Origin: Longimicrobiales bacterium
GTDB lineage: Bacteria; Gemmatimonadota; Gemmatimonadetes; Longimicrobiales; Gaopeijiaceae
NCBI GenBank assembly: GCA_965248195.1
Contig: CBDFIQ010000002.1
Coordinates: 384,001-448,000, forward strand
Direction: 5' to 3'
DNA length: 64,000 nucleotides
This document shows, piece by piece, positions 39,812-63,314 of the stretch (positions within the stretch are counted from its first letter, which is position 1; each line of letters opens with the position of its first letter). The notes under the pieces were generated by a model. That model was not told the origin of the DNA and did no database searches. It saw nothing but the letters and a program-made list of their open reading frames with translations. A program made the translations under genes and the position numbers.

Positions 39812-39860
39812 GCTGTAACAAGAAAAGCCTGAGGGCAATAACACTGGCAGTTACACTGGC
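39812..39860 (+). repeat. Orphan element left-arm motif
   Basis: GCTGTAACAAGAAAAGCCTGAGGGC then AATAACACTGGCAGTTACACTGGC; matches 48230, 62560 and 63291. Confidence 0.75.
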
Positions 39861-41415
39861 GCGACTGGATGGTGACCTTTCCAGCGCGACGGCTAGATCG
39901 GCTTGCGTTCAAGTACGTCACGCCAATGAGGCTGAGATCGGTTTTGCAGTTTTTTGGACCCGTTGGTCAGGACGTGCGCATAGGTGAGTGTTAGGATGGC
40001 TGCGACGGTGAAGTCCTCGTGCCGTCCTCATGCAGGGACCGAGCCACCTGACACCTTCGCGATGGTCTTGATCCGGTCCGTTAAGCTCGTCGTGGAGCAA
40101 CTACGAGTCGGAGTCCAAGGGTCACGCTCCAGGCCCGCCGCACCAGTTGATGCGCACGCACCGCGGGATCGAGGGCGCAGAGTAGTGATCCCGAGCGCCC
40201 CAATGTGCACCTCTCGCTCGAGGCATCCTTTGACTCCACTCAGTCTAACAGAAGCCAATTCCGCAGATTTTTCGGGGCTGGCTACGCCGGAGTGGTAGAA
40301 ACACGGCTTGTCGAGCGCTTAAAAAGTGAACTGGAACAGAGGGCGGAGCGAGGTGGCTTCATCGAGCTCCAGGTCACGCCCCAGAGCGCCACACCAGACA
40401 CGTCCGTTACCCACAGGCTCCAGGCGATCGCACGCATTAACGGCGACGAGGAGATCTTATTCGAGGCGACCCTACGCAGCAATGATGGCGTCCAAGTCCG
40501 GCACTTCCAGGCGCCCGTGTTACTCCCACAGGACTTCGGCCTTCAGTGGTCCGATCTTGAGAAGGAAGCAACGCGGCCAGGAGCGGGCGGCGACCCGAGT
40601 GCCCCCGTGGCACAGCTGTTCTCCGAGGAGCTTGTAGGCCTGGTCGCCGAGAACCTCTACCGCTGGCTTTTTGCCTCGACTGTCCGATTCCGGGTGGGCG
40701 TGGCCCCTTTTATCAATCTGGGCCCGGATACCCTAGACTACGGGTACCTCACTCAGTCCCTGGCGACGTACGTACGAACCGAACTCGCGGGTTCTCTCGC
40801 CCTGTCCGTGTTGGGTGCAACCGCACAGGGGGACCAACACTATACAATCCAAGGTGAATTCTCCGTCGTCGACGGCGGGATGCGGATCGATATCTCGTGC
40901 ATCAAGCAACCGGACGGACGCGTTCTGACCAGTAGTTTCATCCTAGTGGACAGGTTGGACCTCCCCACTCTGTCCGAGGCGGTCAGCCGACTGACCCGCC
41001 GAATGAGCTGGGCTATGGAGAGCGACTTCCGGCTCGAGACCAAGAGTCTAGTTGTCGCGGGTGTCGTGGATTCTCGCGCGAGGTCCGGGGGGGTCATATC
41101 AGACGAAGACCTCTCGATGGCCACGGAAGTCGTTCGCGCGGTCAGCCGAAAATTCGGCCTACTTACACTCGGGAACGGGCCCGACGATCGCGTAGTCAAT
41201 CTCGCGGTCCGATCCGCCGAGTCGCAGGTGCAGCCTGCGTCAGACTTCGACCCACTCTCTACACTGATGGCGAATGAGGCGGACTATCTCGTCCTCGTCG
41301 GCTATGGCGACCTTGGTGATCGTGTCCGTCTGAGTGCCCAACTCTTCTTCTTCGATCCGGACCATCCAGGTAGCGCGGAACCTGTCAACGACAATGGGAC
41401 ACTCTACGGGATTAA

Positions 41416-42423
41416 TTAGAGAGCAATATCCTGTGTGGTGAGGGAAGGGATGGGAGGATTGATGTAGACGGCCTCCGGGAGCGGTTTGGGCTTCGGCACA
41501 CCTGTGACGAAGCGTTCGGGATGAGCGGCCCATGCTTCGCGGAGCACGGATTTCCTGCCGGCAATGACCTGATCGGCGTTCCCGAAGTGGACCTGCTCGG
41601 GGGTTAGCATCGAGATACCGCCATGGCGGTGCTCGGCATTGTACCAGCGGAAGAACGATCGACACAACGTCTTGGCCTGGCCCTGATCCCCGAACCGCCC
41701 GGGAAACGAGGGATGGTACTTCAAGGTTTTGAACTGAGCCTCGGAAAACGGGTTGTCATCCGACACCTGAGGCCGGCTCAACGAGCGAGTCACGCCGAGG
41801 TCAGCGAGAAGTTGAGCGGTGCATTGGCTCGTCATTGGAGCTCCCCGATCCGAGTGCAGGGTCAGGACCCGGGGCTGGACGCCATGCTTCAGGCAGCTCT
41901 GCTGGATCAACCGGCCGGCCAGGGCCGAGTTCTCCCGGTCCGCCACCATCCAGCCCACGACGTAGCGGCTGTAGATATCCATGATGACGTAGAGGTAGTA
42001 ATAGCTCCACTTCTTCGGCCCGAGTAGCCGCGTGATATCCCAGGACCACACCTGGTTCGGCGCCGTGGCCATCAACTCGGGCTTCTTGTACTCGGGATGG
42101 GTGCGCTGCGCCCGGCGTTCCTGAACCGGCACCTCGGAGGCCAGAACACGATACATCGTGCGTTCGCTGCACAGGTAGACCTCTTCGTCGAGCAGCGTGG
42201 CCACCACCTCGGCGGGTGAGCGGTCCACGAACCGCTCCGAACACAGCGTGTCGAAGACCTCGCCTCGTTCCGTCTCGCTCAATGCCCGGGCGGGCGTCGG
42301 GCGGGGCTGCCGTTGCCCGGTCGATGGGCCTCGACGACGGTAGAACGTCGATCGGGAGACCTCGAGAGCCGCGCACGCCGGTTTTACACCGACGTGCTTA
42401 GCCAGCTCATCGGCCGCCTTCAA
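41416..42423 (-). CDS. DDE transposase OrfB (rve domain)
   Basis: PNQVWSWDIT, LHSDRG, DNPFSEAQFKTLK. Confidence 0.95.
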   Translation of the reverse strand: MKAADELAKHVGVKPACAALEVSRSTFYRRRGPSTGQRQPRPTPARALSETERGEVFDTLCSERFVDRSPAEVVATLLDEEVYLCSERTMYRVLASEVPVQERRAQRTHPEYKKPELMATAPNQVWSWDITRLLGPKKWSYYYLYVIMDIYSRYVVGWMVADRENSALAGRLIQQSCLKHGVQPRVLTLHSDRGAPMTSQCTAQLLADLGVTRSLSRPQVSDDNPFSEAQFKTLKYHPSFPGRFGDQGQAKTLCRSFFRWYNAEHRHGGISMLTPEQVHFGNADQVIAGRKSVLREAWAAHPERFVTGVPKPKPLPEAVYINPPIPSLTTQDIAL

Positions 42424-42869
42424 GAGTTCGTCCCGTCGTCGAGGCTTATCCCCAGCAGCCCCGCAACTTTTCCCTGCACGTCGATGATCAGGTGTGCCTT
42501 CCTGAGCTCATTCTCGAGCCGTGCGTTTTGCCGCTCCAGCTTGCGTACCTTCTCATCCAGCGGATTCCGCTCCGGCTTGCGGCCGCGTTTCTTCGACAGG
42601 GCCTTCAGCGACCCGCTATGCGCCGCCTTGCGCCACGTCGTCAGGTGCGACGAGTACAGGCCCTCGCGCCGCAGGAGCTGACCCACCTCGCCGGGCTCGG
42701 TGCACCGGTCCGCTTCTTCGACGATCCGCAGCTTGTACGATGGACTGAACCGCCGGCGTAGCGGCCTATCTACTACCTCCGGGTCCGCAGGAGCTGCCGC
42801 GCTTCGCTTGGCCTCCCCGATTCCAGGGGCACTACCATTCTCTTCCATTCTCTCTCGCAGTCCCAACAT
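42420..42869 (-). CDS. Transposase OrfA (HTH plus coiled coil)
   Basis: RRRFSPSYKLRIV..LLRREGLYSSHLTTWR. Confidence 0.9.
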   Translation of the reverse strand: MLGLRERMEENGSAPGIGEAKRSAAAPADPEVVDRPLRRRFSPSYKLRIVEEADRCTEPGEVGQLLRREGLYSSHLTTWRKAAHSGSLKALSKKRGRKPERNPLDEKVRKLERQNARLENELRKAHLIIDVQGKVAGLLGISLDDGTNS

Positions 42870-43802
42870 GTTCGTTTTCTCTGCCTTCGCCCTACTCTAA
42901 TTCTTTGCGTGCTCCGTGTCTCACGTACGTTGGCAGAGAGGGGCGCGGCCACGGTCTACGAACAAGATGTCGACGTCACGGACATAAACGCCGCGGTCGA
43001 CAGCAGTGTAGTCGCCGTCGTACAGGCGCTAGCGAACATAGGTGCCGGGGTGCGGCTCCCAGACGACGGCATCGCTACGGCAATCCGATCTGTGCGAGCG
43101 AACACGAGGCAGCGGGGACGGGAGCTCGGTGTTCGGTTGGGTCCCGTGATGTACCGTAACGACAGTAACCTCGTCTTTGGAAGCAGCGCTGGGACCTACG
43201 TCGAAGCCTACCTTGCGGTCATGCCCGAATTCCTGTCTTTGGGCCAGCCGGGCGGGAAATATGATGTGGGCTTTGAGTTTCTATACGGTGGCGACATGGG
43301 GGAGGATTACTCCTTTCGCACCGCCTCGATACACTCGTTTTCGGTGAATCTCAAGATGTACATGACACCATGGCGCTACTCTCGGGCAGCCATAAACTTC
43401 GCGCTGGGTGCGGGCGCGGGATTCACCGCTCTGAGATACTCGTTCCAACCGGGCGACCGTCGGTTCATCGGTGACGAGAATTTCCACGACGCGGCGGCCC
43501 GTTTGGCGGTCAACTTCTTTGCAATCGCTTCGATTCCCCTGTTCAAAGCGATAGAAGGGGACGCAGTTGTCCGATGGGCTCCTCCACTGGGTGACCTGCG
43601 ACGGTTCGCTAACGTCCAGGACGAAGGAATCGTGTGGGATACACCACTGGTGGGTCCTCTCGGCGGTGTCTACTTCGCCTTCGGCCTGAAGTATCGATTT
43701 TGAGTAGTCCGCCTTCCCGCTAGTTCCGCCGATCAAATCGATACTGGACTCGTCGCTTAATCGGCTGCTGGAGCAGGTCTAGAAGTTCTCAAGGAGTCTG
43801 AC

Positions 43803-44912: not shown

Positions 44913-44961
44913 GAGCGCCGAGTAGAGGTCGGTAATACGGGACTGCTCGGGAGTGGATCAG

Positions 44962-45101
44962 AAACCTGTAACACAAAACCTGTAACAGCGCCCACGAGCG
45001 CCCGACTCATATCTGATAAGCGTGAGGTCGTAGTTCGAGTCTACCCACGCCCACTTGGTGAAGCGACTGCCCCGCTTGGTCTTACGTGACCGGGCGGGGT
45101 T
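44962..45101 (+). repeat. att junction 1: right arm, tRNA 3'-half copy, hairpin
   Basis: AACCTGTAACA x2, GCGCCCACGAGCG, GACTCATAT, core 45013-45053 (one deletion, one substitution versus the tRNA), hairpin 45069-45101. Confidence 0.92.
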
Positions 45102-45118
45102 CTTACTTGATTGCTGCG

Positions 45119-45952: not shown

Positions 45953-46070
45953 AGGTCTCTCCTTTCCCAGGGTTGCGGTGACTACTCGGTGTGAGATATG
46001 CGTTTTGCTTCGGAAAAACCTCAGCTTCGTCCAACGCGGCTATCCCCATGCCCTCTCTTCAGGCCGGCGA

Positions 46071-47006
46071 TTAGGCCGCCTCGTCCAGGAACTTGGTCAC
46101 CACCTGCACCAGCTCCTGCGGTTTGTCCATGTGCACGTAGTGGCCGGACTTGTCGATTACCTCCAGCTTGGCGTTTGGCAGCTTTTCCGCAATCTCGTGC
46201 CCCAGCTTGCTGCTGATGAAACGATCGTACTTGCCCCACACCACCAGCACGGGTGTTTGAAGCTCTTGTGCGTGCGGCTCGAAGTACTCCTGGCCCGTGC
46301 GGAAGTTTTGGAAGTACGAAAGAAACGCCTCTTGGGTGCTCTTACTCACACCATCGGATAAGAATTCTCGTCGCACCTCAGCCGGGATGGAGTGCCCCCT
46401 GTAAAATCCTTTGAAGTACGAAATTTTGGCTGTGATGCGCGGAAACCAGCGCACCAGGGCCTTGCCGATGATCGAGCCTTTTTTGGCAAAACTCTTGAGC
46501 TCCCAGGAGGAGTATTGTGGCCGCGGAAACGGAATGCCGTCCATCACCGCCAGCTTGGAGACACGGCTCGGGTGCTCGAGGCCGACCAGTAGCGAAGGGA
46601 GGAGGGCAATGTCGGTGGCCACCAGGCTCGCCTGACGGATCTGAAGCGAGTCCATGAAGTCTACAATCACCTCAGCAAAGCGGCGTGAAGTGTAGTCCTC
46701 GGGCGACGCCAACGGCTCGCTTCCGCCAAAACCAGGCCAATCGACCGCCAGCACGTGGTACTTCTCGGACAGGAGCGGCGCCACAGCGTACCAGCCCTGC
46801 AGATTCTCGGGCACGCCGTGAAGCAGTAGAACCGTCGGGTTTGCCGGGTCCCCCAACTCGGCATAGCGGATGTTGAGATCTTCCTTTTCCAACCGCACGG
46901 TCTTGGTAGCCAGCAGACGGTTCGGTTTTGCAATCGTGTCGCGGCTGTCGGTGTTCAATGGTGTTTTTTCCGATCGAGCTAAGAGTCCGGCGTCACTCGT
47001 GTTCAT
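46071..47006 (-). CDS. Alpha/beta hydrolase (epoxide hydrolase/dehalogenase-like)
   Basis: LLHGVPE, DWPGFGGS, nucleophile-position Asp in ATDIA, SGHYVH. Confidence 0.88.
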   Translation of the reverse strand: MNTSDAGLLARSEKTPLNTDSRDTIAKPNRLLATKTVRLEKEDLNIRYAELGDPANPTVLLLHGVPENLQGWYAVAPLLSEKYHVLAVDWPGFGGSEPLASPEDYTSRRFAEVIVDFMDSLQIRQASLVATDIALLPSLLVGLEHPSRVSKLAVMDGIPFPRPQYSSWELKSFAKKGSIIGKALVRWFPRITAKISYFKGFYRGHSIPAEVRREFLSDGVSKSTQEAFLSYFQNFRTGQEYFEPHAQELQTPVLVVWGKYDRFISSKLGHEIAEKLPNAKLEVIDKSGHYVHMDKPQELVQVVTKFLDEAA

Positions 47007-47048
47007 GTTTCCTCTCCTTGGTTTAGGTACTGAGAATTCGAGTACGAT

Positions 47049-47579
47049 TTAGGACGCGAAGATCTCTACCGCACGCCGATAAGAGACAGCTTGCGAGAGA
47101 AATCCAAACAGTACCGGCAAGGCGTAAACCTGAGCTAGCAGCGCCGTGGGTGCCGCACCGATGTCACCGGTACTCAATGACGCCTCAGCCAGGATAAGGG
47201 CCGAATTGATGGTTCCGATAATCAATCCAATCGTCACAGCCCTCGCCGGAATCCCATGTAGAAAGGCGGTCGCGACAAGGCTCTCCGGTGTCCCAGGTAT
47301 GTGCTCTTTTTTGGCATCCACCCAGGCCCGCCGGATAGCCGTGAGTTGCGAGATTGCAATGACTGCGAAAGGGGTCACATAGGCCAAAAGCAGAGGCAAA
47401 ATCTGAATCGTGTCGGATCCGAAGAGCGCGTCGAATTGATTGATCCAGGTCAGTGCACTGCCAATGATCAGAGCGAGGATCGCTGAGCGGCGTAGCACGC
47501 CGCCTGTCAATGGTGCCGACTCAAGGAGACCCCAGCGTTGCCGATTTCCCGAACGCCATGTGCTAATTCCTGCTTTCAT
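47049..47579 (-). CDS. Small membrane protein with a duplicated NrtS-like motif
   Basis: ALIIGSALTWINQ..YVTPF and GLIIGTINSAL..YALP halves. Confidence 0.65.
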   Translation of the reverse strand: MKAGISTWRSGNRQRWGLLESAPLTGGVLRRSAILALIIGSALTWINQFDALFGSDTIQILPLLLAYVTPFAVIAISQLTAIRRAWVDAKKEHIPGTPESLVATAFLHGIPARAVTIGLIIGTINSALILAEASLSTGDIGAAPTALLAQVYALPVLFGFLSQAVSYRRAVEIFAS

Positions 47580-47600
47580 CTTTCGATATGCTCCAGTAAG

Positions 47601-47612
47601 GTGTATATACAC
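47601..47612. promoter_or_regulatory. Candidate MarR operator GTGTATATACAC
   Basis: Perfect 12-bp palindrome, identical to 48097-48108. Confidence 0.75.
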
Positions 47613-47630
47613 TTAATCGTCAAAAAAAAC

Positions 47631-48092
47631 TCACCCGTTTTGCACCACGCCAATCGTTTTCTCTAGATCATCCAGAAAGGCTGACCAACGCTTCTGACCA
47701 AGACCGTCGACTAGCCGGGACTGCGCCTCTCGCCAGTAGGGAAGGGCATCTTCGAGCACCGTCTTCCCCTCGTCCGTTAGGCTGACGATGCGTACCCGTT
47801 GATCCTCGTCCTGTTCAATGCGGACCAGTCGCTTCTCAACGAGCGGCTTGAGATTTCGCGTTAACGTCGTACGGTCCATAACAAGGGCGTCTGCCAACCG
47901 CGTCAGTGGTGTATCTCCCAGTCTCGCCAGTGCCGAGATCACGGTGAATTGGGTTACCTGCAGGCCAACCGGCCGCAAGCCGGCGTTATAGACTTGCGTC
48001 ACCGCTCGCGTTGCTTTGCGCAAGTTTGCGATTGTGCAATTCGCTCGATCCAGGGCATTGCGACTCTGATTTAAAGGTTTCTTGGCGGTCAT
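47631..48092 (-). CDS. MarR family regulator
   Basis: C...NLRKATRAVTQVY..MDRTTLTRNLKPL..DQRVR..LTDEG. Confidence 0.93.
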   Translation of the reverse strand: MTAKKPLNQSRNALDRANCTIANLRKATRAVTQVYNAGLRPVGLQVTQFTVISALARLGDTPLTRLADALVMDRTTLTRNLKPLVEKRLVRIEQDEDQRVRIVSLTDEGKTVLEDALPYWREAQSRLVDGLGQKRWSAFLDDLEKTIGVVQNG

Positions 48093-48096
48093 GTAC

Positions 48097-48108
48097 GTGT
48101 ATATACAC
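48097..48108. promoter_or_regulatory. Candidate MarR autoregulatory operator GTGTATATACAC
   Basis: Perfect palindrome 4 nt upstream of the marR start. Confidence 0.75.
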
Positions 48109-48194
48109 TCTTATGCGTCGCCTGTCAAGAGGAGGCTGTGGAGGGGAAGCACCACGATCGTCGGGATCGTCCCCTGACCCTTCGCCACTATCAT

Positions 48195-48254
48195 AAGCCC
48201 CGCAAGGTTTTGTGCCCTGCGGGGCTTTTGCTGTAACAAGAAGGGCGTGAGGGC
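48195..48254 (+). repeat. Orphan element left end (hairpin plus arm motif)
   Basis: AAGCCCCGCAAGG..CCTGCGGGGCTTTT-GCTGTAACAAGAAGGGCGTGAGGGC, homologous to 62527-62584. Confidence 0.85.
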
Positions 48255-48631: not shown

Positions 48632-48978
48632 CGCACGGGTTCTCCGGCGCCGCACAAGGGATCGCGATTCTGCTGTCTGACCACTATGCCGACCAGCGGC
48701 GTGAGCTGGCGCGCCAAGTTATCGATTCCTTCGTGTGGGTCCTTTTGCCCTTTCGATCACGAACTCGGCGAGTGCAGTCCAACGGACTAGAGACGGCTTC
48801 AATTCTTCGAGAATCTCGTTGGCAGTCGTCCCCGTGAAAGGCCCCTTGTGCCGCTTCTTCATCTCGTGGTACGCCGCCACAGCACGATGGACGACGGGTT
48901 GCTCCTCAGGCGTCAAGTCCATGACTGTAAACTAACGGTACTCCCCGCTGTCGATGCTGACAGCGACCAGAGTCAAAC

Positions 48979-50233: not shown

Positions 50234-50342
50234 CTACAGCCTCCTCCGGATGGACAAAAGGTGGAGACCCGGCCCCGTCCGGACAACGGGTCGATCCCGC
50301 GCGCCTTCGTTTGCCCATCGTTAGTTCTAAGGGTATCTTGTT

Positions 50343-50361
50343 GATAACGAGAATCATTCTT
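50343..50361. promoter_or_regulatory. Fur-box-like site upstream of sufB
   Basis: GATAACGAGAATCATTCTT matches 15/19 of GATAATGATAATCATTATC. Confidence 0.65.
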
Positions 50362-50409
50362 GATAGATCCAGCAGGAGCAGGACCAGAAGCAGCAGGAGG
50401 AGGAGGTCC

Positions 50410-51825
50410 ATGCCAGAAAATGAGCTCGTCGAAGGACTCGGTCTCGACGAATACCAGTACGGGTTCGTCGATGAAGAGGCGCACGTCTTCCGGACCAGGC
50501 CCGGCCTGGACGAGGACATCGTCCGACAGATTTCGAAGCACAAGGAAGAGCCCGAGTGGATGCTCGAGTTCCGTCTGAAGGCTCTGAAGGTCTACGAGTC
50601 GAAGCCGATGCCGACGTGGGGTGGGGACCTCTCGGATCTCGAGGCGACGCTCGATGAGATCTACTTCTATGTGAAGCCACAGGACCAGATGGAGCGCTCC
50701 TGGGACGACGTCCCCGAGAACATCAAGAACACGTTCGAGAAGTTGGGCATCCCTGAGGCAGAGCAGAAGCTCCTGGCCGGAGTCGGAGCGCAATACGAGT
50801 CCGAGATGGTATACCACTCCCTCAAGGAGGAGTGGGCTTCCAAGGGCGTGATCTTCGATTCGATCGAAGACGGCCTCAAGAACCATCCAGAGCTCTTCCG
50901 GGAGCATTTCGCGACCGTCATCCCCATTGCGGACAACAAGTTCTCGGCGCTCAACTCGGCGGTCTGGTCGGGGGGGTCGTTCGTCTATGTGCCGAAGGGC
51001 GTAACGCTCGAGACGCCGCTACAGGCGTATTTCCGGGTCAACCAGGAGCGTATGGGACAGTTCGAGCGCACGCTGATCATCATGGATGAGGGCGCTCAGG
51101 CTCACTACATCGAGGGATGCACGGCGCCGGTCTACTCCACCGACTCGTTCCACTCCGGCGTGATCGAGATCGTCCTGAAGAGGGACGCGAGATTCCGGTA
51201 CACGACCATTCAGAACTGGTCGAACAACATGTACAACCTCGTGACTCAACGCGCCGTGGTGAACCAAAACGCGAACATGGAGTGGCTCGACGGCAACCTC
51301 GGCTCGAAGCTCACGATGAAGTATCCGTCGTGCTACCTCGTGGGTGAGGGAGCCCACGGAGAAATCATGTCCATCGCTTATGCCAGCGACGGCCAACACC
51401 AGGACACCGGGGGCAAGGTGGTTCATGTGGCCCCGAACACCACGTCATCGATCATCTCGAAGTCGATCTCGAAGGGCAATGGCCGGTCCACGTATCGCGG
51501 CCTTTGCAAGGTCTACGAGGGTGCGGTCAACGCGCGGTCCAACGTCGAGTGTGATGCGCTTCTCATCAACGATACCTCGCGCACGGATACCTATCCGTAT
51601 ATCGAGATCGAAGAGAAGAACGCGTCGGTGGGACACGAGGCGACCGTCTCCAGGGTGGGCGACGCGCAGCTCTTCTACCTCATGAGCCGCGGGCTGACGC
51701 AAGAGGAGGCCATGGCGCTCATCGTGCGCGGATTCATCGAGCCGATCGCCAAAGAGCTTCCGCTGGAGTACGCCGTCGAGCTCAACCGGCTCATCGAGCT
51801 CGAAATGGAGGGATCGGTCGGCTGA
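50410..51825 (+). CDS. sufB: Fe-S cluster assembly protein SufB
   Basis: [54 protein letters not shown]. Confidence 0.97.
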
Positions 51826-51932
51826 TGTCCAACCCTGCTCAAGCAGTGGAGGCGTCGAGCGCGGAGGAAGAGACTCCGAGCTCCCTGGACCAGGGCACGG
51901 TGGAGAGCTTCAGCCGGGGTGCCCTTATCTGA
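51825..51932 (+). pseudogene. N-terminal stub (35 aa) of the gene after sufB, probably sufD
   Basis: TGATG coupling to suf[20 protein letters not shown] then an abrupt end; identity inferred from usual sufB-sufD order. Confidence 0.55.
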
Positions 51933-51977
51933 TGATCGAAGTTGGTCATTGCTAACGGCCATGAGGCATCTTCGGCA

Positions 51978-53420
51978 ATGAACGTACTCCTCATCTCCTG
52001 CTATGAGCTCGGCCATCAGCCGTTCGGAGTAGCGTCCGCTGCCGCACACTTGATCGCGGAAGGGCGCCATCAAGTGGAATGCCTGGATCTCGCCGTCGAG
52101 GTTATCGACGAGGTCAAGGTCCGCCGGGCCGACTTTGTGGGGATCTCGACTCCCATGCACACGGCGATCCGACTCGGGGTCAAAGCCGGTGAGCTGGTCC
52201 GGGGATTGAATCCGCAGTGCCACATCTGCTACTTCGGGCTTTACGCTTCTCTTAACGAGGACTACCTCCTCAACAGCGTAGCCGATAGTGTGATCGGCGG
52301 TGAATTTGAGACGCCGCTCAGGCAGCACGTCGACTGCTTGGCCCAGAATGGATCGACTGGCCCGGGAGGTGTCTCGCTCTCGGAGCTGCGCGGTCCACCC
52401 AACCTGTCTCGACAGCAGTTTCTCCCGCCGGCGCGACATTTACTACCTCCCCTGGAGAAGTATGCCCGCCTGAGGACCTCCGAAGGCGAGCTCCGGCTGG
52501 TGGGATATGTCGAGGCCAGCCGCGGTTGTGCTCATCGGTGCCGGCACTGTCCGATCCCCGCTGTCTATGAGGGGAGGCTTCGCATAGTTCAACAGGAGGT
52601 CGTGCTCGCAGATATCGACAATCTCGTGCGCATGGGGGCGCAGCACATCGACTTTGGCGACCCGGATTTCCTGAACGGTGTGAAGCACTCGCTCGGGGTC
52701 GTTCGGGAGATGCGTAACCGCCACCCCGAACTGAGCTTCAACTTCACGGCCAAGATCGAGCACCTGATCCAGCATCGTGACGCGGTCATGGAGCTGGCGG
52801 CGCTCGGGTGCATCTTCGTCGTGTCCGCTGTGGAGAGTGTGGACGACCGTATTCTCGGGTATCTCGACAAGGGTCACACCCGAGATGACGTGGTCACTGC
52901 GCTGGAGATCACACGATCCGCCGACGTAGCCCTTCGCCCCTCGCTGTTGCCTTTCACGCCTTGGACGACGCTGTCGGGATATTTGGAGCTGCTCGAGTTC
53001 GTGCAGAAGCACGATTTGGTCTATCACCTCGATCCGGTGCAATACTCCATCAGACTCCTTCTGCCTCCAGGCTCATGGCTCCTCGATATCCCTGAGATCC
53101 AGCCCTCCTTGGGGAGGCTGGTTCAGAAGGACTTCGTGTACACCTGGCAGCATTCGGATCCCAAGGTGGACGCGCTACAACAGCAGGTCTCGCGAGTCGC
53201 TGAAGAAGCAGCCAACTCGGGTGAAGACCCGGCAACGACGTTCTACCGAATCAAGGAGCTTACCGTTGCGACCATTTTTGGCCGGTGGACCGTAGCCCAA
53301 CCCCGATACCGCCGTCGGAGTGTCCGATCACCGCACCTGACTGAAGCGTGGTTCTGCTGAGCTGAGCCGACCGAGAGTCAGTTCGGCTCTGTGGCGACGG
53401 TGACAGGATTGGAAAGCTAG
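51978..53420 (+). CDS. CUAEP-tail B12-binding radical SAM selenoprotein (UGA 53358-53360 read as Sec)
   Basis: LISCYELGHQP, CAHRCRHC, tail LTEAWFC-UGA-AEPTESQF, hairpin directly after the UGA. Confidence 0.9.
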
Positions 53421-53424
53421 CGTC

Positions 53425-53632
53425 ATGGGCCATCATGCTTTTACGGTCGACGAGGCAAACGAGAAGCTTCCTGAGGTGCGGGCCGCCCTCAACCAGATCC
53501 AAAGCCTTCGCGACGTGGCACGCAGCAAGATGGACCAGCTGGCCGTGCTGGACGCTCTTTGGGGCGACCTGGTCTCCCAAAGTGCCAACCCGGATCACGA
53601 GGAGTACGCGCAGCATCGTCATTCTCTCTCGC
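53425..53632 (+). pseudogene. Truncated DUF2203-like gene
   Basis: FTVDEANEKLPEVR N-terminus; collides with the truncated ATP-grasp gene before the expected C-terminal half. Confidence 0.65.
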
Positions 53633-54422
53633 CGAGGATGGCCACGGACCGCCGCACGGAGGAGACGATCTCGCGCTGAACACTCTCGGGGAGACGGGAA
53701 GGCGTCACAAGGATGGTCTCCTCGAAGAACGGCCCCTCCATGAGGTCCGGCTTGTCCAGCACGGCCAGGGTCTGCAGCTCGCCCCCCACCACGATCCCCT
53801 CCACGGCCACTTCGCCCCCCGGCATGTACGCTTCGATCAGGATCTCGGCCACGCCGTGGCCGCTGCGCGTGACTGCGTCGGGCTGCTCGAGGATCGCCCG
53901 AATCCGGCTCCAGGCCCGGCCGAACTCTTCGGGCGTGTCTGCGCGGATCACCCCGCGGCTGGCGGACAACGCGAGCGGCTTGAGAACGCAGGGATAGCGA
54001 GCCCTCGCCGCCGCTGCTTCCGCATCATCCTCGAAGGAGGCGACGTGGAACCAGGGGGACGGGAGTCCGGCCGCCTCGAGCCGCTGCCGCATGACCGCTT
54101 TGTTACGAGCGGACCGGACCGCCTCGGGAGGATGGTGCGTCAGCCCCAGGGCCTCCGATGCTGCCGCGGCCACCGCCGCGAAATCGTCTTCCGCCGCCAC
54201 GATGGCCGTCAGCGGATAGTCCGAGACGAACCGTACGATGCTGGCCACCGATCGGTCGATGTCCCCGACGCCGAGAGTGAGCGCTCCGCCAGGTGTTAGG
54301 TCGGCGAGGGCCTGGCGGTGATTCGAGCCAACCGTGACGTCCAGGTCCAGGCGGCGGGCCGCGGCGACAAAAGCCTCGGCGCGATACGAGGTTCGTGAAA
54401 GGAGGAGAAGGACCCTCGACAC
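53619..54422 (-). pseudogene. ATP-grasp protein, C-terminally truncated
   Basis: RNKAVMR, VLKPLALSASRGVIR, IEAYMPG, FEETILVTPS; ends before the expected HxE..EVAAR segment. Confidence 0.8.
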
Positions 54423-54446
54423 GATAGGCCCTCCGTCGGGTTCCGG

Positions 54447-55058
54447 TTATTTGGACGCGCTGATGTAGGGATTCTCGCCGTCGCCGTGGTTGGTTACGTC
54501 CTCGATGCCCTCGATCTCCGGCACCTGCTCCCGAAGGATCCGCTCGATTCCCTGGCTCAGCGTCACCGAAGCCATCCCGCACCCCTGGCAACCCCCACCC
54601 ATCTGGAGGTAGACGATCTTGTCCCTGACTTCCACCAGCGTCACCTGTCCGCCGTGCTGGGCCACCCCGGGGTTCACGAACTGGTCGATGGCCTGCCGAA
54701 CCCGGTCGGCCAGTGGCCCTTCCAATGGCTTCGAGCCGATGGGCGCCAGGTTCGGGTTCTCCACCTTGAACCCGCTCTCGGTCAGGGTCTCCATCCAGTC
54801 GACGCGAGCGCCATCGAGGAGCTTCGCACTCTCGGGCTCCATCACGACCTCGAAGCCGTAGCCGTCGAACACCAGGTCTTCCGAGCATATTTCACCGGGC
54901 TCGATCATCGTGATCTCGTAGCGCGGATCGAGCGGGCTTGGGCTCGCGACTTGGATTCGGACCGCAAAGTTTGTGTCCTCGTTCGCCTGCAGGAACTGGC
55001 GGACCGTGTCGCGCGCGAGGGCCGTGAATTCGACGGGCGCCTTCGTGGTGTCTCTCAT
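54447..55058 (-). CDS. nfuA: Fe-S carrier NfuA (degenerate A-type domain plus NifU-C)
   Basis: VNPGVAQHGG..MGGGCQGCGMASVTLSQGIE..DVTNH..NPY. Confidence 0.92.
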   Translation of the reverse strand: MRDTTKAPVEFTALARDTVRQFLQANEDTNFAVRIQVASPSPLDPRYEITMIEPGEICSEDLVFDGYGFEVVMEPESAKLLDGARVDWMETLTESGFKVENPNLAPIGSKPLEGPLADRVRQAIDQFVNPGVAQHGGQVTLVEVRDKIVYLQMGGGCQGCGMASVTLSQGIERILREQVPEIEGIEDVTNHGDGENPYISASK

Positions 55059-55528
55059 TGTATAGGTGCCGGCTCTGGGCTGGTCGATGGATGGGCAAGA
55101 CCTAGTCTAGCGGAGTAGATGGCCGCCGCTCGGGCCGCATGTTCTTTCATTTTTAGGGTCATCGAGTAGAAGCCGTTTCTTCGGTTGACCGAGAGATGCT
55201 GCTCCAGCTCCAGCCGCTCGAAGAGTCCTTCTACGTCGGTCGAAAGGATCTCTTCCGGCGTCTTGCCATTGTACATCATGAGAAGCACGCCGATGAGCCC
55301 TTTGACGATGTGCGCGTCGCTGTCGCCCCGAAACACAACTTCGGACGACTCGGAGCCCTCGACGGTCACGAGCCAGACCTGACTCAGACATCCTGGAACC
55401 AGGTGCTCTTGATCCCTGAATTCCTCCGGGTACGGCTCCAGCTTCCGCCCAAGCTGGATGAGGTATCGATAGCGGTCCTCCGAGGAGCGCAACCTATTGA
55501 AGCGCTCGGCGAATTCGTCGGGGGTCAT
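55055..55528 (-). CDS. sufE: Cysteine desulfuration protein SufE
   Basis: RYRYLIQLGRKL..VPGCLSQVW..DSDAHIVKGL..LSVNRRNG. Confidence 0.93.
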   Translation of the reverse strand: MTPDEFAERFNRLRSSEDRYRYLIQLGRKLEPYPEEFRDQEHLVPGCLSQVWLVTVEGSESSEVVFRGDSDAHIVKGLIGVLLMMYNGKTPEEILSTDVEGLFERLELEQHLSVNRRNGFYSMTLKMKEHAARAAAIYSARLGLAHPSTSPEPAPIQ

Positions 55529-55550
55529 GGGTGGCGGTTGTCGTAGAGGG

Positions 55551-55877
55551 TCAAACCGTGAACGAGCTCCCGCACCCACAGCCGCCGCTCGCCTTGGGAT
55601 TCTGGAAGGTGAAGCCCTGACCCATCATGTTCGTGACGTAGTCGATCTCGACACCTTCCAAGTACTGTGCGCTGAACGCGTCCACGAACACCTTCACGCC
55701 GTTGACGTCGAGCACTTCGTCGTCCGCCTCGGGACCGTCCTCGACGTTCAAACCGTACTGAAAGCCGGAGCACCCACCGGGTAGCACCGCAACGCGGAGT
55801 CCAGCGTCACCCTCGACTCCGTGCTCCTGTATGAAGTCCTGGACCTTCTCGACCGCCGAAGTCGTCATCGTGACCAT
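55551..55877 (-). CDS. A-type Fe-S carrier (HesB/IscA/ErpA family)
   Basis: GGCSGFQY, GF.F.NP, CGCGSSF. Confidence 0.95.
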   Translation of the reverse strand: MVTMTTSAVEKVQDFIQEHGVEGDAGLRVAVLPGGCSGFQYGLNVEDGPEADDEVLDVNGVKVFVDAFSAQYLEGVEIDYVTNMMGQGFTFQNPKASGGCGCGSSFTV

Positions 55878-55992: not shown

Positions 55993-56059
55993 TAAATGGC
56001 TGTCGTTCTGATCCTCATTTTGAGCGCATGAGCGAGGGGGAAACCTGCTAGGCCTCTGG

Positions 56060-56738: not shown

Positions 56739-56775
56739 CATATGTTAAAAATGAATGGGTACTTCGCTGGTTTGC

Positions 56776-57009: not shown

Positions 57010-57088
57010 GAGATTCGCAGAGCGCCGTACCCCGGCTGTACGATCATGGTGGTCACTTGAGCTAGGGCCGATCCACTAGGGGGCTGAT

Positions 57089-57598: not shown

Positions 57599-57710
57599 GC
57601 GTAGGCTTCTCGGTTCGAGGAGCCGAAGCAGGCGGAGTTTTGGAACAGGACGCCGCCGAACCTCATGCGATGACCTTGATGTCCACATACGGATTCAGGC
57701 GTCGGTGAGA

Positions 57711-57887
57711 AAGCTGTAACAAAACCTGTAACAGCGCTGGCGAGCGCCCACGAGCGCAGAATCGGCTAAATCCCCCGATTTCCAGCGCCCACGAGCGCCC
57801 ACGAGCGGTAGTCTCATATCTGATAAGCGTGAGGTCGGTAGTTCGAGTCTACCCAGGCCCATTGATGGAAATTGAAGCCCCGTAAGG
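57711..57887 (+). repeat. att junction 2: longest right arm, perfect tRNA 3'-half copy, half hairpin
   Basis: CTGTAACA x2, three CCCACGAGCG units plus one variant, CTCATAT, core 57820-57861 identical to 35374-35415, then AAGCCCCGTAAGG. Confidence 0.95.
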
Positions 57888-57985
57888 AGATCGAGGGCGA
57901 CGTCATGCATACGGTGAATCTAGCACAGAGGCGCTTGCCCCTACTGGAGGATCTTCGGTCGTACCCGTACGAGGATCCCGAGACT

Positions 57986-58336
57986 CTAGAAGGCGCTCGA
58001 GACTATTGCGAAGAAGTAAAGAGCGACCAGCACCGCGACGACGATCACCCAGCGCAGAGCCGTCGTATGGACCCTGTGCGCGTGCTTCCGGGGCTCGCTG
58101 AAGAGATAATCGGCTTCGCTGAAGGGTCTCCTGGCCGTCGGCCTGACGCTGACGGACGCGAAGCCGGCACCAAGTTCTCTCAGGGTAGCCGAGAGTCGCC
58201 GAGCCTCACGGATTCGCTGCCTAAGGCGTGGGGATAGGAGCAAGGCTGTCCCAAGCGGGATCCGCAGAAACCATGGCAGCTCTCCATCGGCGTATCGCAT
58301 GACGACCTCATCCGTGATTCTGGGCCCGAGCATCAC
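57986..58336 (-). CDS. Hypothetical protein with C-terminal TM helix, possibly a fragment
   Basis: 116-aa ORF with a hydrophobic C-terminus. Confidence 0.45.
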   Translation of the reverse strand: MMLGPRITDEVVMRYADGELPWFLRIPLGTALLLSPRLRQRIREARRLSATLRELGAGFASVSVRPTARRPFSEADYLFSEPRKHAHRVHTTALRWVIVVAVLVALYFFAIVSSAF

Positions 58337-58505
58337 TCATGACTTCTTGTCGAGGGGCGTTCGAGCGTCATCACCGGGCCGCCAAAGCCGTGCGCGCCTC
58401 ACCCCACCGACGTCCTCTCGCGGATTCCGTTGGCCTCCTCCCATCTCCAGCTGAACTCGACCCGGTAATGGCGACTAAGGTCGCTCCTGAGGGGGGAGGC
58501 ACACA

Positions 58506-59759: not shown

Positions 59760-59791
59760 TCGGCAGGCTTCAGCCGTGGGCGTCGGAACTA

Positions 59792-60605
59792 GGGTCTGTT
59801 AACACTAAGGGCAATTTGTAGTATATTGGGGCTATGAAAATCACAGAGTCCCAATATCGTCGGATAGAGGCTTGCTTTCCGCATCAGCGCGGCAATGTGA
59901 GCATCTCCAATCTCGAAGTGCTTAACGCGATCCTGTATGTGGCCGAACACGGCTGCAAATGGCGGGGGTTGCCTCCGCGTTTCGGTAACTGGCATACGAT
60001 CTACACCCGAATGAATCGCTGGGCCAGGGCAGGTGTGCTGGATCGTGTCTTTGCGGCCCTGCAAGACGAGCAAATTATCCGGATCAAGATCCAAGCTCTG
60101 TCGATCGACAGTACCATCGTCAAGGTGCACCCTGATGGCACCGGCGCTCTAAAAAAAAACGGCCCGCAGGCCATCGGCAAGTCGCGTGGAGGCTGGACCA
60201 CCAAGATTCATATGGTTGCCGCAGATGCTCGAACCGCGATAACCTTCTCGCTATCGCCAGGCCACAAGCACGACGCGCCGGAAGGACGGGAACTGCTACG
60301 CACGTTGAAGCCGGTACATTCCACAGTGTCCATGATCATGGACCGGGCGTACGAGGGGGGCGAAACACGGCAATTGGTGTTGGAGCTGGGGTTTACGCCG
60401 GTCGTGCCACCCAAGCAGGGCCGTGTTAACCCGTGGCAGTATGACCGAGTCATGTATCGCCGTCGTAACGAAATAGAGCGGTTATTTCGGCGACTCAAAG
60501 GCTTCAGAAGAATCTTCTCCCGCTTTGACAAGCTCGACGTGATGTTTACCGCCTTCATCCACTTCGCGCTCATCGTCGAAGCCCTCAGATAGTGTTAACA
60601 GGCCC
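59792..60605 (+). mobile_element. IS5-family insertion sequence (814 bp)
   Basis: IRs GGGTCTGTTAACACTA and TAGTGTTAACAGGCCC; TA target duplication. Confidence 0.93.
59834..60592 (+). CDS. IS5 family transposase
   Basis: GCKWRGLP..FGNWHTIY, IDST, SRGGWTTKIH, DRAY, RNEIERLF.RLK. Confidence 0.95.
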   Translation: MKITESQYRRIEACFPHQRGNVSISNLEVLNAILYVAEHGCKWRGLPPRFGNWHTIYTRMNRWARAGVLDRVFAALQDEQIIRIKIQALSIDSTIVKVHPDGTGALKKNGPQAIGKSRGGWTTKIHMVAADARTAITFSLSPGHKHDAPEGRELLRTLKPVHSTVSMIMDRAYEGGETRQLVLELGFTPVVPPKQGRVNPWQYDRVMYRRRNEIERLFRRLKGFRRIFSRFDKLDVMFTAFIHFALIVEALR

Positions 60606-61039
60606 TAATACAACACTCCGTATTTGTGGCCGCCGCCATTGGACTCAGGCTGCCTCTCGACCTGTCCGAACTGCGGGATCTCGGGACCGAGCGGCGAGTC
60701 GCACACGCCGAGCGCGGGGATGATCGCGAACACGGCGATTATCGGTCGCTGCCTTTGCAAAGTTAGGCCTACCCCCTGCAAAGAGGATCTAGGGAGTCGG
60801 CGTTTGGGTCTCCCTAGAATCATCGACTTGATGTCCCGAACGGACCCCACCGGCAAGGCCTGCAGCGATAGTCTTCCTTGGCCCGCGGGTGGCATTTGGC
60901 GCTGCAAGCAGCCCCGGACACTGACCGGACCCAGGGACGTACCCTGGACGTGGGTCGGTCTGGGCAACATTATGACGCTCCAAGCTCTGCACCGCTCATC
61001 GGGGCCGCCGCACGGCCTCATGCCCGATGGAGGAGACTG

Positions 61040-62227
61040 ATGAAAGGCAAGCCCGTTTTCGCGATCACTCTGCTCGCATTCATACTGGCGCTCGCCGTCG
61101 GCCAGATCCTCCTCCAGGAGAGAGTCGAGGCGGTGCAGCAGGCCATGGTCGAAGTGCCCCTGTTCGAGGTCGATCCCTTCTGGCCCAAACCGCTTCCGAA
61201 CCACTGGGTCCTGGGCAACGTGATTGGTGTGGGCATCGATTCGCGTGACCACGTCTTCATCGTCCACCGCCGGGACGCACTGAATCCGGGGAACGAGGGA
61301 AACGTGGGGCCGGATCAGCCGGACGCCATGTGTTGTGAAGCGGCTCCCAACGTGCTGGAGTTCGATGTGGAGGGGAATCTGGTGAATCACTTCGGTGGGC
61401 CGGGCGGCCAGTACACTTGGCCGGTATCGAATCACGGTCTTCAGGTGGACCCCATGGACAACATCTGGATCGGCGGGAACGGCCAGGGCGATTCCCACAT
61501 TCTCAAGTTCACGCGGGACGGCCGTTTCCTGATGCAGGTGGGGGACCCCGGACAGGGAGTCGACTCCAACAGCAGGTCGCACTTCTCTCGGGTGACGAAG
61601 GTCTCCTTCGACCAGAACGGCGACGAGGCCTTCGTCGGGGACGGATACGGAAACAAGCGAGTCGTCGTCTTGGACTCCGACACCGGCGAATTCCTGCGTT
61701 ACTGGGGTGCCTATGGCAATAGGCCGGACGACGCGGATCTGGGCTCCTTCGATCCGGATGCGCGGCCGGCCCAGCAGTTCCGTGGACCGGTCCACTGCGC
61801 GGAGCCCTCCAATGACGGCCTCGTCTACGTCTGCGACCGGACGGCCAATCGTCTCCAGGTCTTCCAGCAGGACGGAACCTTCGTCGAGGAGGTCTTCATC
61901 GAGCCCAGGACGCTAGGCGCCGGCTCCACCTGGGAGATTGCCTTCTCGCCAGACGACGACCAGCGCTTCATGTACCTGGCCGACGGCCAGAACCGGAAGA
62001 TCCACGTGATGGACCGGGAGAGCCTCGAAGTGCTGTACACCTTCGGTGATGGTGGCCGCCAGCCAGGACAGTTTTACGGCGTCCATAGCATCGAGACGGA
62101 CTCGCAAGGCAACCTATACACCACCGAGACCTGGGAGGGGAAGCGCCTCCAAAAGTTCGTCTACCGAGGGATGGGCAGGGTCGAGAGAGGCTCGGATCAG
62201 GGCGTGCTCTGGCCCACGGACCAGTGA
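61040..62227 (+). CDS. Secreted NHL-repeat beta-propeller protein
   Basis: FEVDPFWPKPLPNHW, GDGYGNKRV, CDRTANRLQVF, FYGVHSI; GGAGGA RBS. Confidence 0.9.
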   Translation: MKGKPVFAITLLAFILALAVGQILLQERVEAVQQAMVEVPLFEVDPFWPKPLPNHWVLGNVIGVGIDSRDHVFIVHRRDALNPGNEGNVGPDQPDAMCCEAAPNVLEFDVEGNLVNHFGGPGGQYTWPVSNHGLQVDPMDNIWIGGNGQGDSHILKFTRDGRFLMQVGDPGQGVDSNSRSHFSRVTKVSFDQNGDEAFVGDGYGNKRVVVLDSDTGEFLRYWGAYGNRPDDADLGSFDPDARPAQQFRGPVHCAEPSNDGLVYVCDRTANRLQVFQQDGTFVEEVFIEPRTLGAGSTWEIAFSPDDDQRFMYLADGQNRKIHVMDRESLEVLYTFGDGGRQPGQFYGVHSIETDSQGNLYTTETWEGKRLQKFVYRGMGRVERGSDQGVLWPTDQ

Positions 62228-62252
62228 CGGAAATCGGTTGACGGAAATCGGT
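62225..62252. repeat. 14-bp tandem duplication TGACGGAAATCGGT x2
   Basis: Seen at the NHL gene stop codon. Confidence 0.8.
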
Positions 62253-62447
62253 TTGACCGGAACCGTCATACCTTCGGACTGGACACTTCGATGGCCCAGG
62301 AGGCCTTCGGTGCAGCGCCCGTGCCGTGAGCCAGTCCGTCTCCGTGCGCATCTCGTCGAACCGCAAGGACGACCAAGAGCATCAGCTCGCTTGAATTCGT
62401 GGGTGAGTTCCGGGGCAGTGGCACACGACTCCGTCAAAGTCCGTTAT

Positions 62448-62592
62448 GCGCCCACGAGCGCTCGACTCATATCTGATAAGCGTGAGGTCGGTAGTTCGAG
62501 TCTACCCAGGCCCACTTTTAAGTAATAGCCCCGTAAGGTCTTACGGCCTGCGGGGCTTTGATGTATCAGGAAAGGTCTGAGGGCTGTAGCAG
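62448..62592 (+). repeat. att junction 3: short right arm, perfect tRNA 3'-half copy, hairpin, left arm
   Basis: GCGCCCACGAGCG..GACTCATAT, core 62473-62514, AGCCCCG..CGGGGCTTT, GATGTATCAGGAAAGGTCTGAGGGCTGTAGCAG. Confidence 0.95.
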
Positions 62593-62737
62593 AAACTCCA
62601 CGTCGACAAGTGTCAATCAAGACAACGGGACGGCACGGTTCCCCCGACTGGTCCACGCCCTCCTCCCCCCTCGCCCGAAACGTATCCCCCGCCACATTTT
62701 CCTTCCCAAGCCCGACTTCCCTGGCATAATCTAGACT

Positions 62738-63242
62738 ATGAAGAACGTTCTCCTCACCACGAGTTTGGCCCTGGGCTTAACAGGCTGCGGGGACGGATTG
62801 AAGACGTCAGATTGGAAGACTTACCGGAACGAAGAGTTTGGGTTTACGGCGAAGTATCCGTCAACATGGACAGTAGGAGGCCGGGCGATCGACAATAACA
62901 CAGGTGAGGTCGTCTCCATTTCGTTTCAGGGGCCTCACGAGAACGGGCAACCCAGAGCCTTGGTCCAATTTTCTCTTCAACGGAACGGAAACTCTCAAGG
63001 GCTTTCTATCGGTCAATGGTATGCCGATCAACGCGAAAAAATCGAGTCCGCCGCTGGAGAAGATGTCCCTTCTGGAGAAAATGTCACCGTGGGCGGAAGG
63101 CCAGCGAAATTGATGAGCATTTCAGGACAGGAAAGGTATTTCATTGCCCGAGTCAGATATTCTATCGATTGCCTATGTTTCCCAAGAGTCGTTTGATCCT
63201 ATATACGAGACGATTCTCTCGACAGTGAAATTCATGGAATAA
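62738..63242 (+). pseudogene. PsbP-related lipoprotein, frameshifted near 63148
   Basis: Lipobox LTG-C, DWKTYRNEEFGFTAKYP; the C-terminus SDILSIAY..FDPIYETILSTVKFME* lies in another frame. Confidence 0.75.
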
Positions 63243-63252
63243 CGCGGGGGTC

Positions 63253-63314
63253 GAGCCACTCCGAGGGTCGCTCTGGCCTCGTGGGGCTTCGATGTAACAA
63301 GAAAGGCTGAGGGC
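63253..63314 (+). repeat. Orphan, degenerate element left end
   Basis: GAGCC..CCTCGTGGGGCTTC-GATGTAACAAGAAAGGCTGAGGGC. Confidence 0.8.

Follow-up and report, generated by a model that had tools for sequence, protein, structure and literature searches.

Orphan left-end motifs in a tRNA-Ile island array of a Longimicrobiales bacterium probably represent eroded attachment sites

Integrase-less islands of the ICESt1/IME type (CIMEs) are outlined as the result of serial site-specific insertion at the end of one target gene, with older elements decaying to forms devoid of integration genes, while chimeric att sites persist internally between neighbours; the definition given there retains both attL and attR (PMC5704250). 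Tandem ssrA islands of Dehalococcoides, as described in PMC3146451, display many repeats of the target 3' end within ~100 kb, a conserved motif beside the repeat and boundaries eroding further out, and 15 of these islands lack an integration module. In case of the tycheposon islands of Prochlorococcus (bioRxiv 10.1101/2020.12.28.424599), newer elements are described to displace older ones away from the tRNA, with partial tRNAs and integrase fragments strewn through the island. General support for tandem arrays undergoing deletion is provided by PMC5812530 and PMC7168690. Among the papers searched, none treated integrase genomic islands at tRNA-Ile in Gemmatimonadota.

The window analyzed here (64,000 nt, the whole stretch of DNA) contains a tRNA-Ile(GAT) gene which is the only one called by ARAGORN in the 4.86-Mb source genome (G000) and the sole Rfam match within 35000–64000. 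Behind this intact gene extends a tRNA-targeted island array (35.4–80.8 kb), defined by 42-nt copies of the tRNA 3' core in the same direction at 45013, 57820, 62473, 65213 and 80732, the latter two as well as another core-attached left end at 65300 being located beyond the window. Counting orphan left ends as boundaries (Table 1), the window comprises seven and the whole array eight segments, an upper count of which five are fixed by cores. The integrase remnant just upstream of the tRNA belongs to a clade different from the one tied to the motif studied here, and remnants of its type also precede tRNA-Ile in several relatives; G000 yielded no displaced 5' half of any of tRNA-Ile, -Asn and -Ala that would explain such upstream remnants. 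The hairpin directly downstream of the tRNA, accompanied by a different repeat pair, is likely to be the left end of the newest unit, derived from another element family. Several arm families use the one tRNA-Ile at this locus.

Table 1 Features of the tRNA-Ile island array within the window
Feature	Position	Strand	Evidence
C-terminal tyrosine integrase remnant, just upstream of tRNA	35152..35277	+	tblastn E ~6e-10 to G000 integrase
tRNA-Ile(GAT), integration target	35342..35415	+	ARAGORN, Rfam RF00005
Hairpin and different 13-nt direct-repeat pair (35487-35512)	35430..35512	+	sequence; fold -30.8 kcal/mol
Possible highly degraded tRNA 3' core	39721..39751	+	local alignment score 30
Orphan left end, all three arm-type repeats, no canonical hairpin	39812..39858	+	PWM score 59.9
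Junction: shortened right end (arm pair 44967/44981), core 45013-45053, hairpin without motif	44966..45101	+	
Hydrolase/membrane protein/MarR block	45987..48130	-	93-94 % identity to G011:C3, ending at 48130
Orphan left end: whole hairpin and first arm; core and arms 2-3 missing	48196..48254	+	
Junction: complete right end (arm pair 57715/57727), core 57820-57861, left end stops inside hairpin	57714..57885	+	
Junction: partial right end, core 62473-62514, hairpin 62527-62559, left-end arms 1-2	62448..62592	+	
PsbP-like lipoprotein gene, alone between 62560 and 63291	62738..63242	+	weak Pfam PsbP_2
Tyrosine-integrase fragment, 11 in-frame codons	63244..63277	+	matches integrase remnant G000:C2:2518460
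Orphan left end: hairpin 3' arm and first arm (1-nt deletion); arms 2-3 missing	63274..63315	+	
TrkA-domain gene, 3' part; continues to 65090	63381..64000	-	Pfam

The left end (attL; P' arm) of one tyrosine-integrase element family carries three arm-type repeats, of which the motif is the first; the original designation of the motif as the left end captured part of a longer structure. A complete junction consists of the right end (a CTGTAWCA repeat pair followed by GC-rich boxes), the tRNA 3' half, a spacer of ~12 nt, a hairpin and three repeats of the same kind as those of the right end. The repeat is paired at right ends (the core follows in 22 of 26), and element-specific arms flank the core on both sides in several genus genomes and metagenomes. 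From this position and from the same layout at related integrase loci, the repeats may be presumed to bind the arm domain of the integrase. As originally noted, the left end at 62560 directly follows a hairpin behind a core. Two repeats are retained there, compared to three at 39812 and one each at 48230 and 63291. Further partial junctions comprise coreless right ends in the G000 array (77715) and in relatives, as well as a core tail with hairpin, but without arms, at ~107672 of G000.

All four copies proposed in the original prediction (39812, 48230, 62560 and 63291) are present and share the same orientation (+). Three of them match at 39814, 48232 and 62562 with 1–2 mismatches, compared to none in 100 shuffles, while the one at 63291 lacks one base and surfaces once indels are allowed. 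An indel-tolerant search of G000 yielded these four matches, all within the array, and the reversed-genome control none. Both 63291 and 65300 escaped the ungapped PWM and were recovered by edit-distance and profile searches; one profile was built from the G000 copies and therefore matches these by construction. All searches combined, G000 contains six left-end copies: five in the array and, deviating from strict confinement, one ectopic copy at a junction also bearing a tRNA-Ile 3' half. Removal of 6 duplicates of the same metagenomic sequences from 25 rows left 19 distinct copies outside G000, of which 17 sit 44–47 nt behind tRNA-Ile 3' sequence (5 directly behind an intact tRNA-Ile gene) and one, in the genus genome G011, abuts an integrase remnant. 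Orphans account for 3 of 6 left ends in G000 and 2 of 19 elsewhere (Fisher p = 0.07), the latter set being biased because the metagenome pattern demanded the 3' arm of the hairpin.

The three orphans separate unrelated gene blocks, as had been stated: a kinase and an unknown ORF at 39812, MarR and an Rdx-family gene at 48230, and the PsbP-like lipoprotein and TrkA-domain genes at 63291. Absence of the core holds for the latter two, but 39812 may not be entirely coreless, as suggested (and no more than suggested) by a degraded core-like stretch ahead of it, whose alignment score is reached by 0.52 % of 20,000 random 120-nt genome windows (~0.03 after five tests). Its arms are identical (47/47 nt) to a core-attached left end in G011, where they abut the stop of the C-terminal integrase remnant. 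Among the 12 genus genomes, 35470–41370 has no homologues beyond short repeats and the arm itself, and the blocks on either side of 39812 are without homologue there, an observation not favouring the interpretation given below.

Of the two orphans supposed to keep the hairpin, 48230 does so completely (-25.0 kcal/mol) and alone among the three; 63291 retains just the 3' arm, fused to 11 integrase codons (30/34 nt and 10/11 aa identical to the remnant at C2:2518460) which stop just before the catalytic His-x-x-Arg motif. A sensitive tblastn search for integrase traces before 39812 and 48230 gave nothing credible, its output being noisy owing to the inclusion of non-coding frames as queries. The original prediction had proposed to check whether homologues of the intervening blocks end at the orphan positions in other genomes. 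Upstream of 48230, the MarR block in G011 gives way within ~30 nt to a full right end with its core; downstream, the homologue of the next block begins at 48649 rather than at the motif. The gene between 62560 and 63291 is indeed single, but frameshifted near 63150, and its Pfam matches (PsbP_2, E 0.007; lipoprotein signal, E 0.025) are both below cut-off. A public contig (run X15) is identical to 62490–63368 (0 differences), so that sequencing error was rejected as the origin of the frameshift and of the deviating copy at 63291, though the contig possibly stems from the source sample. Past the TrkA-domain gene that comes next, the array continues with a complete right end and the core at 65213.

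Of the 30 window proteins scanned, none was assigned to integration or transfer, IS transposases aside, nor to conjugation or mobilisation. PF00589 was not detected in C2:419–465 kb. The search of 12 genus genomes, four of them without match and several incomplete, revealed no intact cognate integrase: only the G011 remnant exceeds 90 % identity, while other matches range between 37 and 58 %. This remnant is 98 % identical to P0001, a full-length relative of 408 aa, such full-length relatives being known as sequences without genomic context. The one remnant adjacent to the arm repeats suggests their cognate integrase to be of the P0001 type. About 10 of 25 loci with related integrases, as judged by eye, are arranged alike at other tRNAs, where the tRNA is succeeded by a hairpin, a short repeat pair and the integrase stop.

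The orphans are probably eroded attL sites left by deletions in tandem tRNA-Ile islands. Elements of one tyrosine-integrase family would target the anticodon loop of tRNA-Ile(GAT) for insertion, each newcomer entering the intact tRNA and displacing older elements outward. Integrases would subsequently be lost and deletions strip parts of the junctions; wherever a right end and core were deleted and the next left end partly spared, an orphan motif would remain between unrelated blocks, the two units being fused into one composite. The order of these events may be as given, and short homologies may play a part in the deletions. Up to seven insertions with lost cores, as originally considered, are supported by two cross-genome cases of a lost junction, by the 17 of 19 outside copies standing behind the core, and by the coreless right ends. 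One of these cases is the MarR block; in the other, the DNA upstream of a G011 orphan recurs in G006 ahead of an intact right end plus core, the similarity reaching up to a short stretch also present in the hairpin and first arm. Several details count against such erosion: orphans make up a larger share of the left ends in G000 than elsewhere, with the p value and bias given above, the pristine arms at 39812 behind a badly degraded core-like stretch require two events, the ~60 nt separating the hairpin at 48196 from the MarR block match nothing in the sequences compared, and the copies at 48230 and 63291 stop at an identical base ahead of arm 2.

This common right boundary is in favour of the left end being a second site-specific recombination site, with each cargo entry duplicating the motif, as the original prediction had offered alternatively. 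The presence of three orphans in a single array, the bracketing of one gene by 62560 and 63291 and the resemblance of the second half of the motif to a few bases of the tRNA core point in the same direction. However, the point at which upstream homology begins varies among five orphans (~0, 13, 16, 32 and 35 nt ahead of arm 1), neither a fixed upstream boundary nor a common incoming flank, as for an attI-like site, is apparent, and 63291 is preceded by integrase codons instead of a recombination flank. Nor does cargo outside G000 start at the motif: besides the block following 48230, homologues of the TrkA-domain gene at 4 other loci have differing left neighbours and start 23–53 nt past the motif position without adjoining motif, and in run X3 the bracketed gene has a homologue matching 62711–63262 only. 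None of the 15 joints listed (127 more exist) links two motifs, such contigs showing presence only. A second recombination site is therefore highly improbable and was rejected on the basis of breakpoints and cargo boundaries. Somewhat less improbable, but still doubtful, is off-target insertion into older cargo with later trimming of the tRNA 3' half, by which the orphans would be nested insertions. Off-target insertion seems to occur in this element family, considering an inverted left end in G011 with a degraded tRNA 3' half behind non-tRNA DNA, a comparable one in G010 as well as pieces of junctions at ectopic positions of G000 (C2:1718371 and C2:2448403); also the core-like stretch at 39721, beginning at the anticodon loop, would fit. 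Yet the tRNA 3' half that should be left behind is absent from 48230 and 63291, all window orphans are oriented as the array, and the MarR block in G011 ends in a normal right end and core.

The usual location of the motif after a strong hairpin with T-run, and of two orphans (63291 and the metagenome locus L091) just past a stop codon, is reminiscent of a dispersed REP-like or terminator-associated repeat unrelated to tRNA-Ile. This explanation is practically negligible in view of a genome-wide occurrence restricted to the array and one ectopic tRNA-Ile junction, the empty reversed control and the preference for tRNA-Ile sequence outside G000. Small unrelated gene blocks parted by a repeated, recombination-related sequence are also typical of integron cassette arrays (IntI, attI, attC), which the row of blocks and separators in the array resembles. 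In contrast to attC hairpins, however, the separators are tRNA 3' halves with direct-repeat arms, and no tyrosine recombinase matched between C2:286250 and C2:530852; an integron was accordingly dismissed.

The erosion of tandem islands proposed here, by comparison, matches the known accretion and decay of CIMEs and does not point to new recombination chemistry. Serial insertion, chimeric att sites within the array and the loss of integration genes are shared with the CIMEs of PMC5704250, but most units lack part of one end and several arm families share one tRNA. Integration or transfer genes are reduced to the 11-codon integrase fragment, whereas both ends are not kept throughout: the three orphan-led segments have no core, while the composites 62494–65254 and 65213–80773, each with one partial end, and a 3.1-kb single-gene unit at the metagenome locus L095 roughly retain both. 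With the ssrA islands of PMC3146451, the array shares repeated target 3' ends, an adjoining motif, module-less islands and eroded boundaries, differing in the target (tRNA-Ile anticodon loop versus tmRNA) and in the presumable tyrosine integrase versus a serine integrase module. Outward displacement from the tRNA resembles the tycheposon islands as described, but neither a replication module nor an intact integrase was seen in this marine Gemmatimonadota host, and the arm-repeat ends are traced here at base level.

One may speculate, with due reserve since it is rather unlikely, that integrase-free mini-cassettes, some as small as one gene, are still moved out of and back into tRNA-Ile by an integrase of the P0001 type visiting the cell, with deletions between repeated arm and hairpin sequences locking captured genes and fusing them into larger movable composites. 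In favour are 18 well-kept right ends beside different genes in 6 of 12 genus genomes, the L095 unit carrying both ends, and the failure to find an intact cognate integrase in the genus genomes. On the other hand, no unit with both ends was seen at two different places, and no excision or transfer joint with a helper element was among the 15 joints listed from assembled contigs. Mobility in trans, if true, would be the more significant outcome, because it would explain the arrival of diverse one-gene cargo, and would imply that marine Longimicrobiales possess a capture-and-lock platform resembling an integron but assembled from att sites of phage type. For a marine lineage of Gemmatimonadota that has received little study, the array provides a base-level example of the growth and decay of tRNA-anchored islands and supplies a defined att-site family together with a candidate 408-aa integrase for tRNA-Ile. 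With five core-bounded units versus up to eight segments, counts of tRNA repeats underestimate the number of insertions.

The only tRNA-Ile(GAT) gene called genome-wide by ARAGORN is the target of an array in which copies of its 3' part (the core; see table) define five units from 35.4 to 80.8 kb. DNA past the last core resembles the sequence directly 3' of the tRNA in another genome (G010); the core-bounded array therefore ends near 80.8 kb. With three left ends that have no core (orphans), the count rises to a maximum of eight segments, of which seven begin within the window, in line with the up to seven insertions originally proposed as one option. The cargo is mixed (30 proteins scanned), comprising kinase, hydrolase, MarR, TenA, SufB, radical SAM, NHL and TrkA genes as well as two IS elements, and no PF00589 integrase is encoded between C2:286250 and C2:530852. 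The tRNA is surrounded by island-like genes, and the DNA 5' of it varies among relatives. Tandem tRNA-Ile repeats are common across the genus, and at least two further repeat families use this tRNA, including a pair at 35487-35512.

Features of the tRNA-Ile array and of its surroundings (window positions unless prefixed by contig C1 or C2 of the same genome; the window spans C2:384001-448000)
Feature	Position	Remark
tRNA-Ile(GAT)	35342-35415	array's target gene
Core copies (3' 42 nt of tRNA-Ile from anticodon loop), in window	45013, 57820, 62473	
Core copies, beyond window	65213, 80732	
Motif next to core	62560	
Motif of orphans	39812, 48230, 63291	
IS elements	41375-42942, 59788-60607	recent, multicopy, breaking up cargo; rve-type and DDE_Tnp_1-type transposase
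SufB/radical SAM/ATP-grasp/NifU/SufE block	50311-55579	near-identical pieces at C1:948884, C2:2919396-2924297 and in relatives; G011 version terminates in partial right end cut at core boundary
C-terminal integrase remnants (one clade)	35126-35290, C2:300067-300345, C2:2518943-2519224	just 5' of tRNA-Ile, tRNA-Asn, tRNA-Ala, same strand as tRNA (reverse of usual layout)
Junction pieces far from tRNA-Ile	C2:1718371-1718573, 1725119, 2448297-2448435, 2355395-2355469, 2750541-2750579; C1:1363991-1364014	include other-family right end fused to core plus motif-bearing left end
Tandem duplication	7076-13900	about 3.5 kb, 70-87% identity; two large ORFs of about 950 aa, small ORF upstream of each
tRNA-Ala(CGC) call (ARAGORN)	9756-9843, minus strand	inside 956-aa ORF; probably false

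Right ends, located left of the core, consist of two CTGTAWCA repeats and then GC-rich boxes. Left ends, located right of it, comprise a spacer and a hairpin, after which come three repeats like those of the right end; the motif corresponds to the first left-end repeat plus the spacer up to the second. Tyrosine-integrase att sites carry arm-type binding sites, and from this general knowledge together with the layout at related integrase loci the repeats of both ends are regarded as putative arm-type sites. In the hairpin at 62527-62559 and related ones, CAA-N4-TTA across 5' arm and loop resembles an IHF site.

The motif pattern first described was found at 39814, 48232 and 62562, deviating by one or two bases at each (no match in 100 shuffles); the 63291 copy is one base short. 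An indel-tolerant search of the whole 4.86-Mb genome yielded four matches, all on the plus strand and within the array region, bearing out the presence first described at four positions in one orientation. A position weight matrix trained on 14 copies from outside this genome matched here only at 39810, 48228, 62558 and an ectopic junction (C2:1718457). The reversed genome gave no match, and since the matrix allows no gaps, the copies at 63291 and 65300 escaped it. Applied to the other fetched loci, it returned 25 rows, i.e., 19 distinct copies after removal of six duplicates from the same metagenomic sequences. Seventeen of these 19, 14 of the outside copies having also served to build the matrix, sit 44-47 nt 3' of tRNA-Ile 3' sequence (one badly degraded), and five directly follow an intact tRNA-Ile gene. 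Of 41 genomes, 7 contain a match to a degenerate pattern, every one of these 7 in the window's genus, and the 13 right-end stretches in named records all belong to Longimicrobiales or Gemmatimonadota MAGs.

Well-kept right ends number 18 in 6 of the 12 genus genomes. Of 26 right ends, four have no full core, including the one at 77715 in this array; at about 107672, a core tail is present with a hairpin but no arms. In another genome, G005, four complete right ends with cores are present (3825-3847 kb of its contig C1) and the left-end motif is unmatched: loss seems to be more frequent for left arms than for right ends.

Two explanations had been offered for the orphans: insertions followed by loss of cores, or a left end acting itself as second recombination site where new cargo enters. 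The latter does not hold, since homologues of the intervening blocks do not start at the motif. At four other loci, the TrkA homologues start 23-53 nt past it, with four different left neighbours and, at two of the four, the same right end as here; for the block downstream of 48230, homology starts only at 48649, and the homologue of the gene bracketed by 62560 and 63291 (run X3) is limited to 62711-63262. The cargo thus moves together with right ends rather than with the motif. The bracketed gene (62738-63242, PsbP-like lipoprotein) carries a frameshift near 63150, with the same letters in a public contig. Loss of cores is borne out by junction comparisons across genomes, scattered breakpoints, complementary fragments and integrase debris, and the orphans probably represent scars of lost junctions. 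The hydrolase-MarR block at 45987-48130 has a homologue in G011 (93-94% identity), where a complete right end with its core lies no more than about 30 nt further on; past the same block end, the present genome has about 60 unmatched bases and then the orphan at 48196, and G005 unrelated DNA. An orphan of G011 shares its upstream DNA with an intact right end plus core of G006 up to a short stretch that is also present in the hairpin 3' arm and first repeat, the pattern expected from short-homology deletion. Such a deletion would remove right end and core, leaving an orphan left end. Resemblance to the canonical junction sets in at varying distances before the first repeat: about 0 (39812), 13 (G011), 16 (63291), 32 (metagenomic locus L091) and 35 nt (48230). 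Two of the three window orphans are also cut on the right, repeats 2 and 3 being gone, and core-attached left ends are likewise cut at varied points (62560, 57861 and several in relatives).

Two orphans had been described as keeping the hairpin; 48230 has it whole, and 63291 retains only its 3' arm. Upstream of this arm, and joined to it via a 4-nt overlap, are 11 in-frame tyrosine-integrase codons resembling the remnant beside tRNA-Ala (30 of 34 nt, 10 of 11 residues), debris left directly by an element. A degraded core-like stretch located 60-90 nt before 39812, with a score reached by only about 0.5% of random windows, may hint at an old junction. Counting against scars are the pristine arms of 39812 behind this much older-looking core, the right-hand end at the same base in both 48230 and 63291, and the orphan share of left ends (3 of 6 here vs 2 of 19 elsewhere, p = 0.07), orphans being undercounted outside because the metagenome pattern demanded the hairpin's 3' arm. 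A further point against is that blocks around 39812 have no homologues in the 12 genus genomes.

A P0001-type tyrosine integrase is the likely candidate enzyme of the motif-bearing ends. In G011, a core is followed by a left end identical to 39812 over 47 nt, which abuts the stop codon of an oppositely oriented integrase remnant (103 aa); P0001, among the full-length relatives (408 aa, PF00589 present), shares 98% identity with it. An intact copy of this type was not found in the 12 genus genomes. By visual inspection, about 10 of 25 loci of related integrases from the same bacterial family share this layout of tRNA, hairpin, short repeat pair and integrase stop, the tRNA being tRNA-Gly, -Ala, -Arg, -Lys or -Pro. 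The tRNA-Ile-associated C-terminal remnant recurs in several relatives and metagenomes, and the 11-codon integrase fragment at 63244 is oriented like the remnants upstream of tRNA-Ile, -Asn and -Ala. Displaced tRNA 5' halves were not found in the window's genome.

The motif array is a real feature, and accretion and decay of this type are already known. The array works like accretion at one att site with decay to cis-mobilizable elements (CIMEs; review PMC5704250), like the tandem islands of Dehalococcoides, which lack integration modules and have eroding boundaries (PMC3146451), and like the islands of Prochlorococcus with outward displacement, scattered partial tRNAs and integrase fragments (bioRxiv 10.1101/2020.12.28.424599). 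No paper joining a Gemmatimonadota genomic island, tRNA-Ile and integrase was found in the literature searched. The orphan-led segments differ from CIMEs because they have no complete left att site, whereas some composites here come near to them, as does a 3.1-kb integrase-free unit (L095:350-3456, also in L098) located immediately 3' of tRNA-Ile, with a left end on one side, a complete right end on the other and one MacB/FtsX-type permease gene in between. The well-kept integrase-free units would be of more interest if they still moved in trans.
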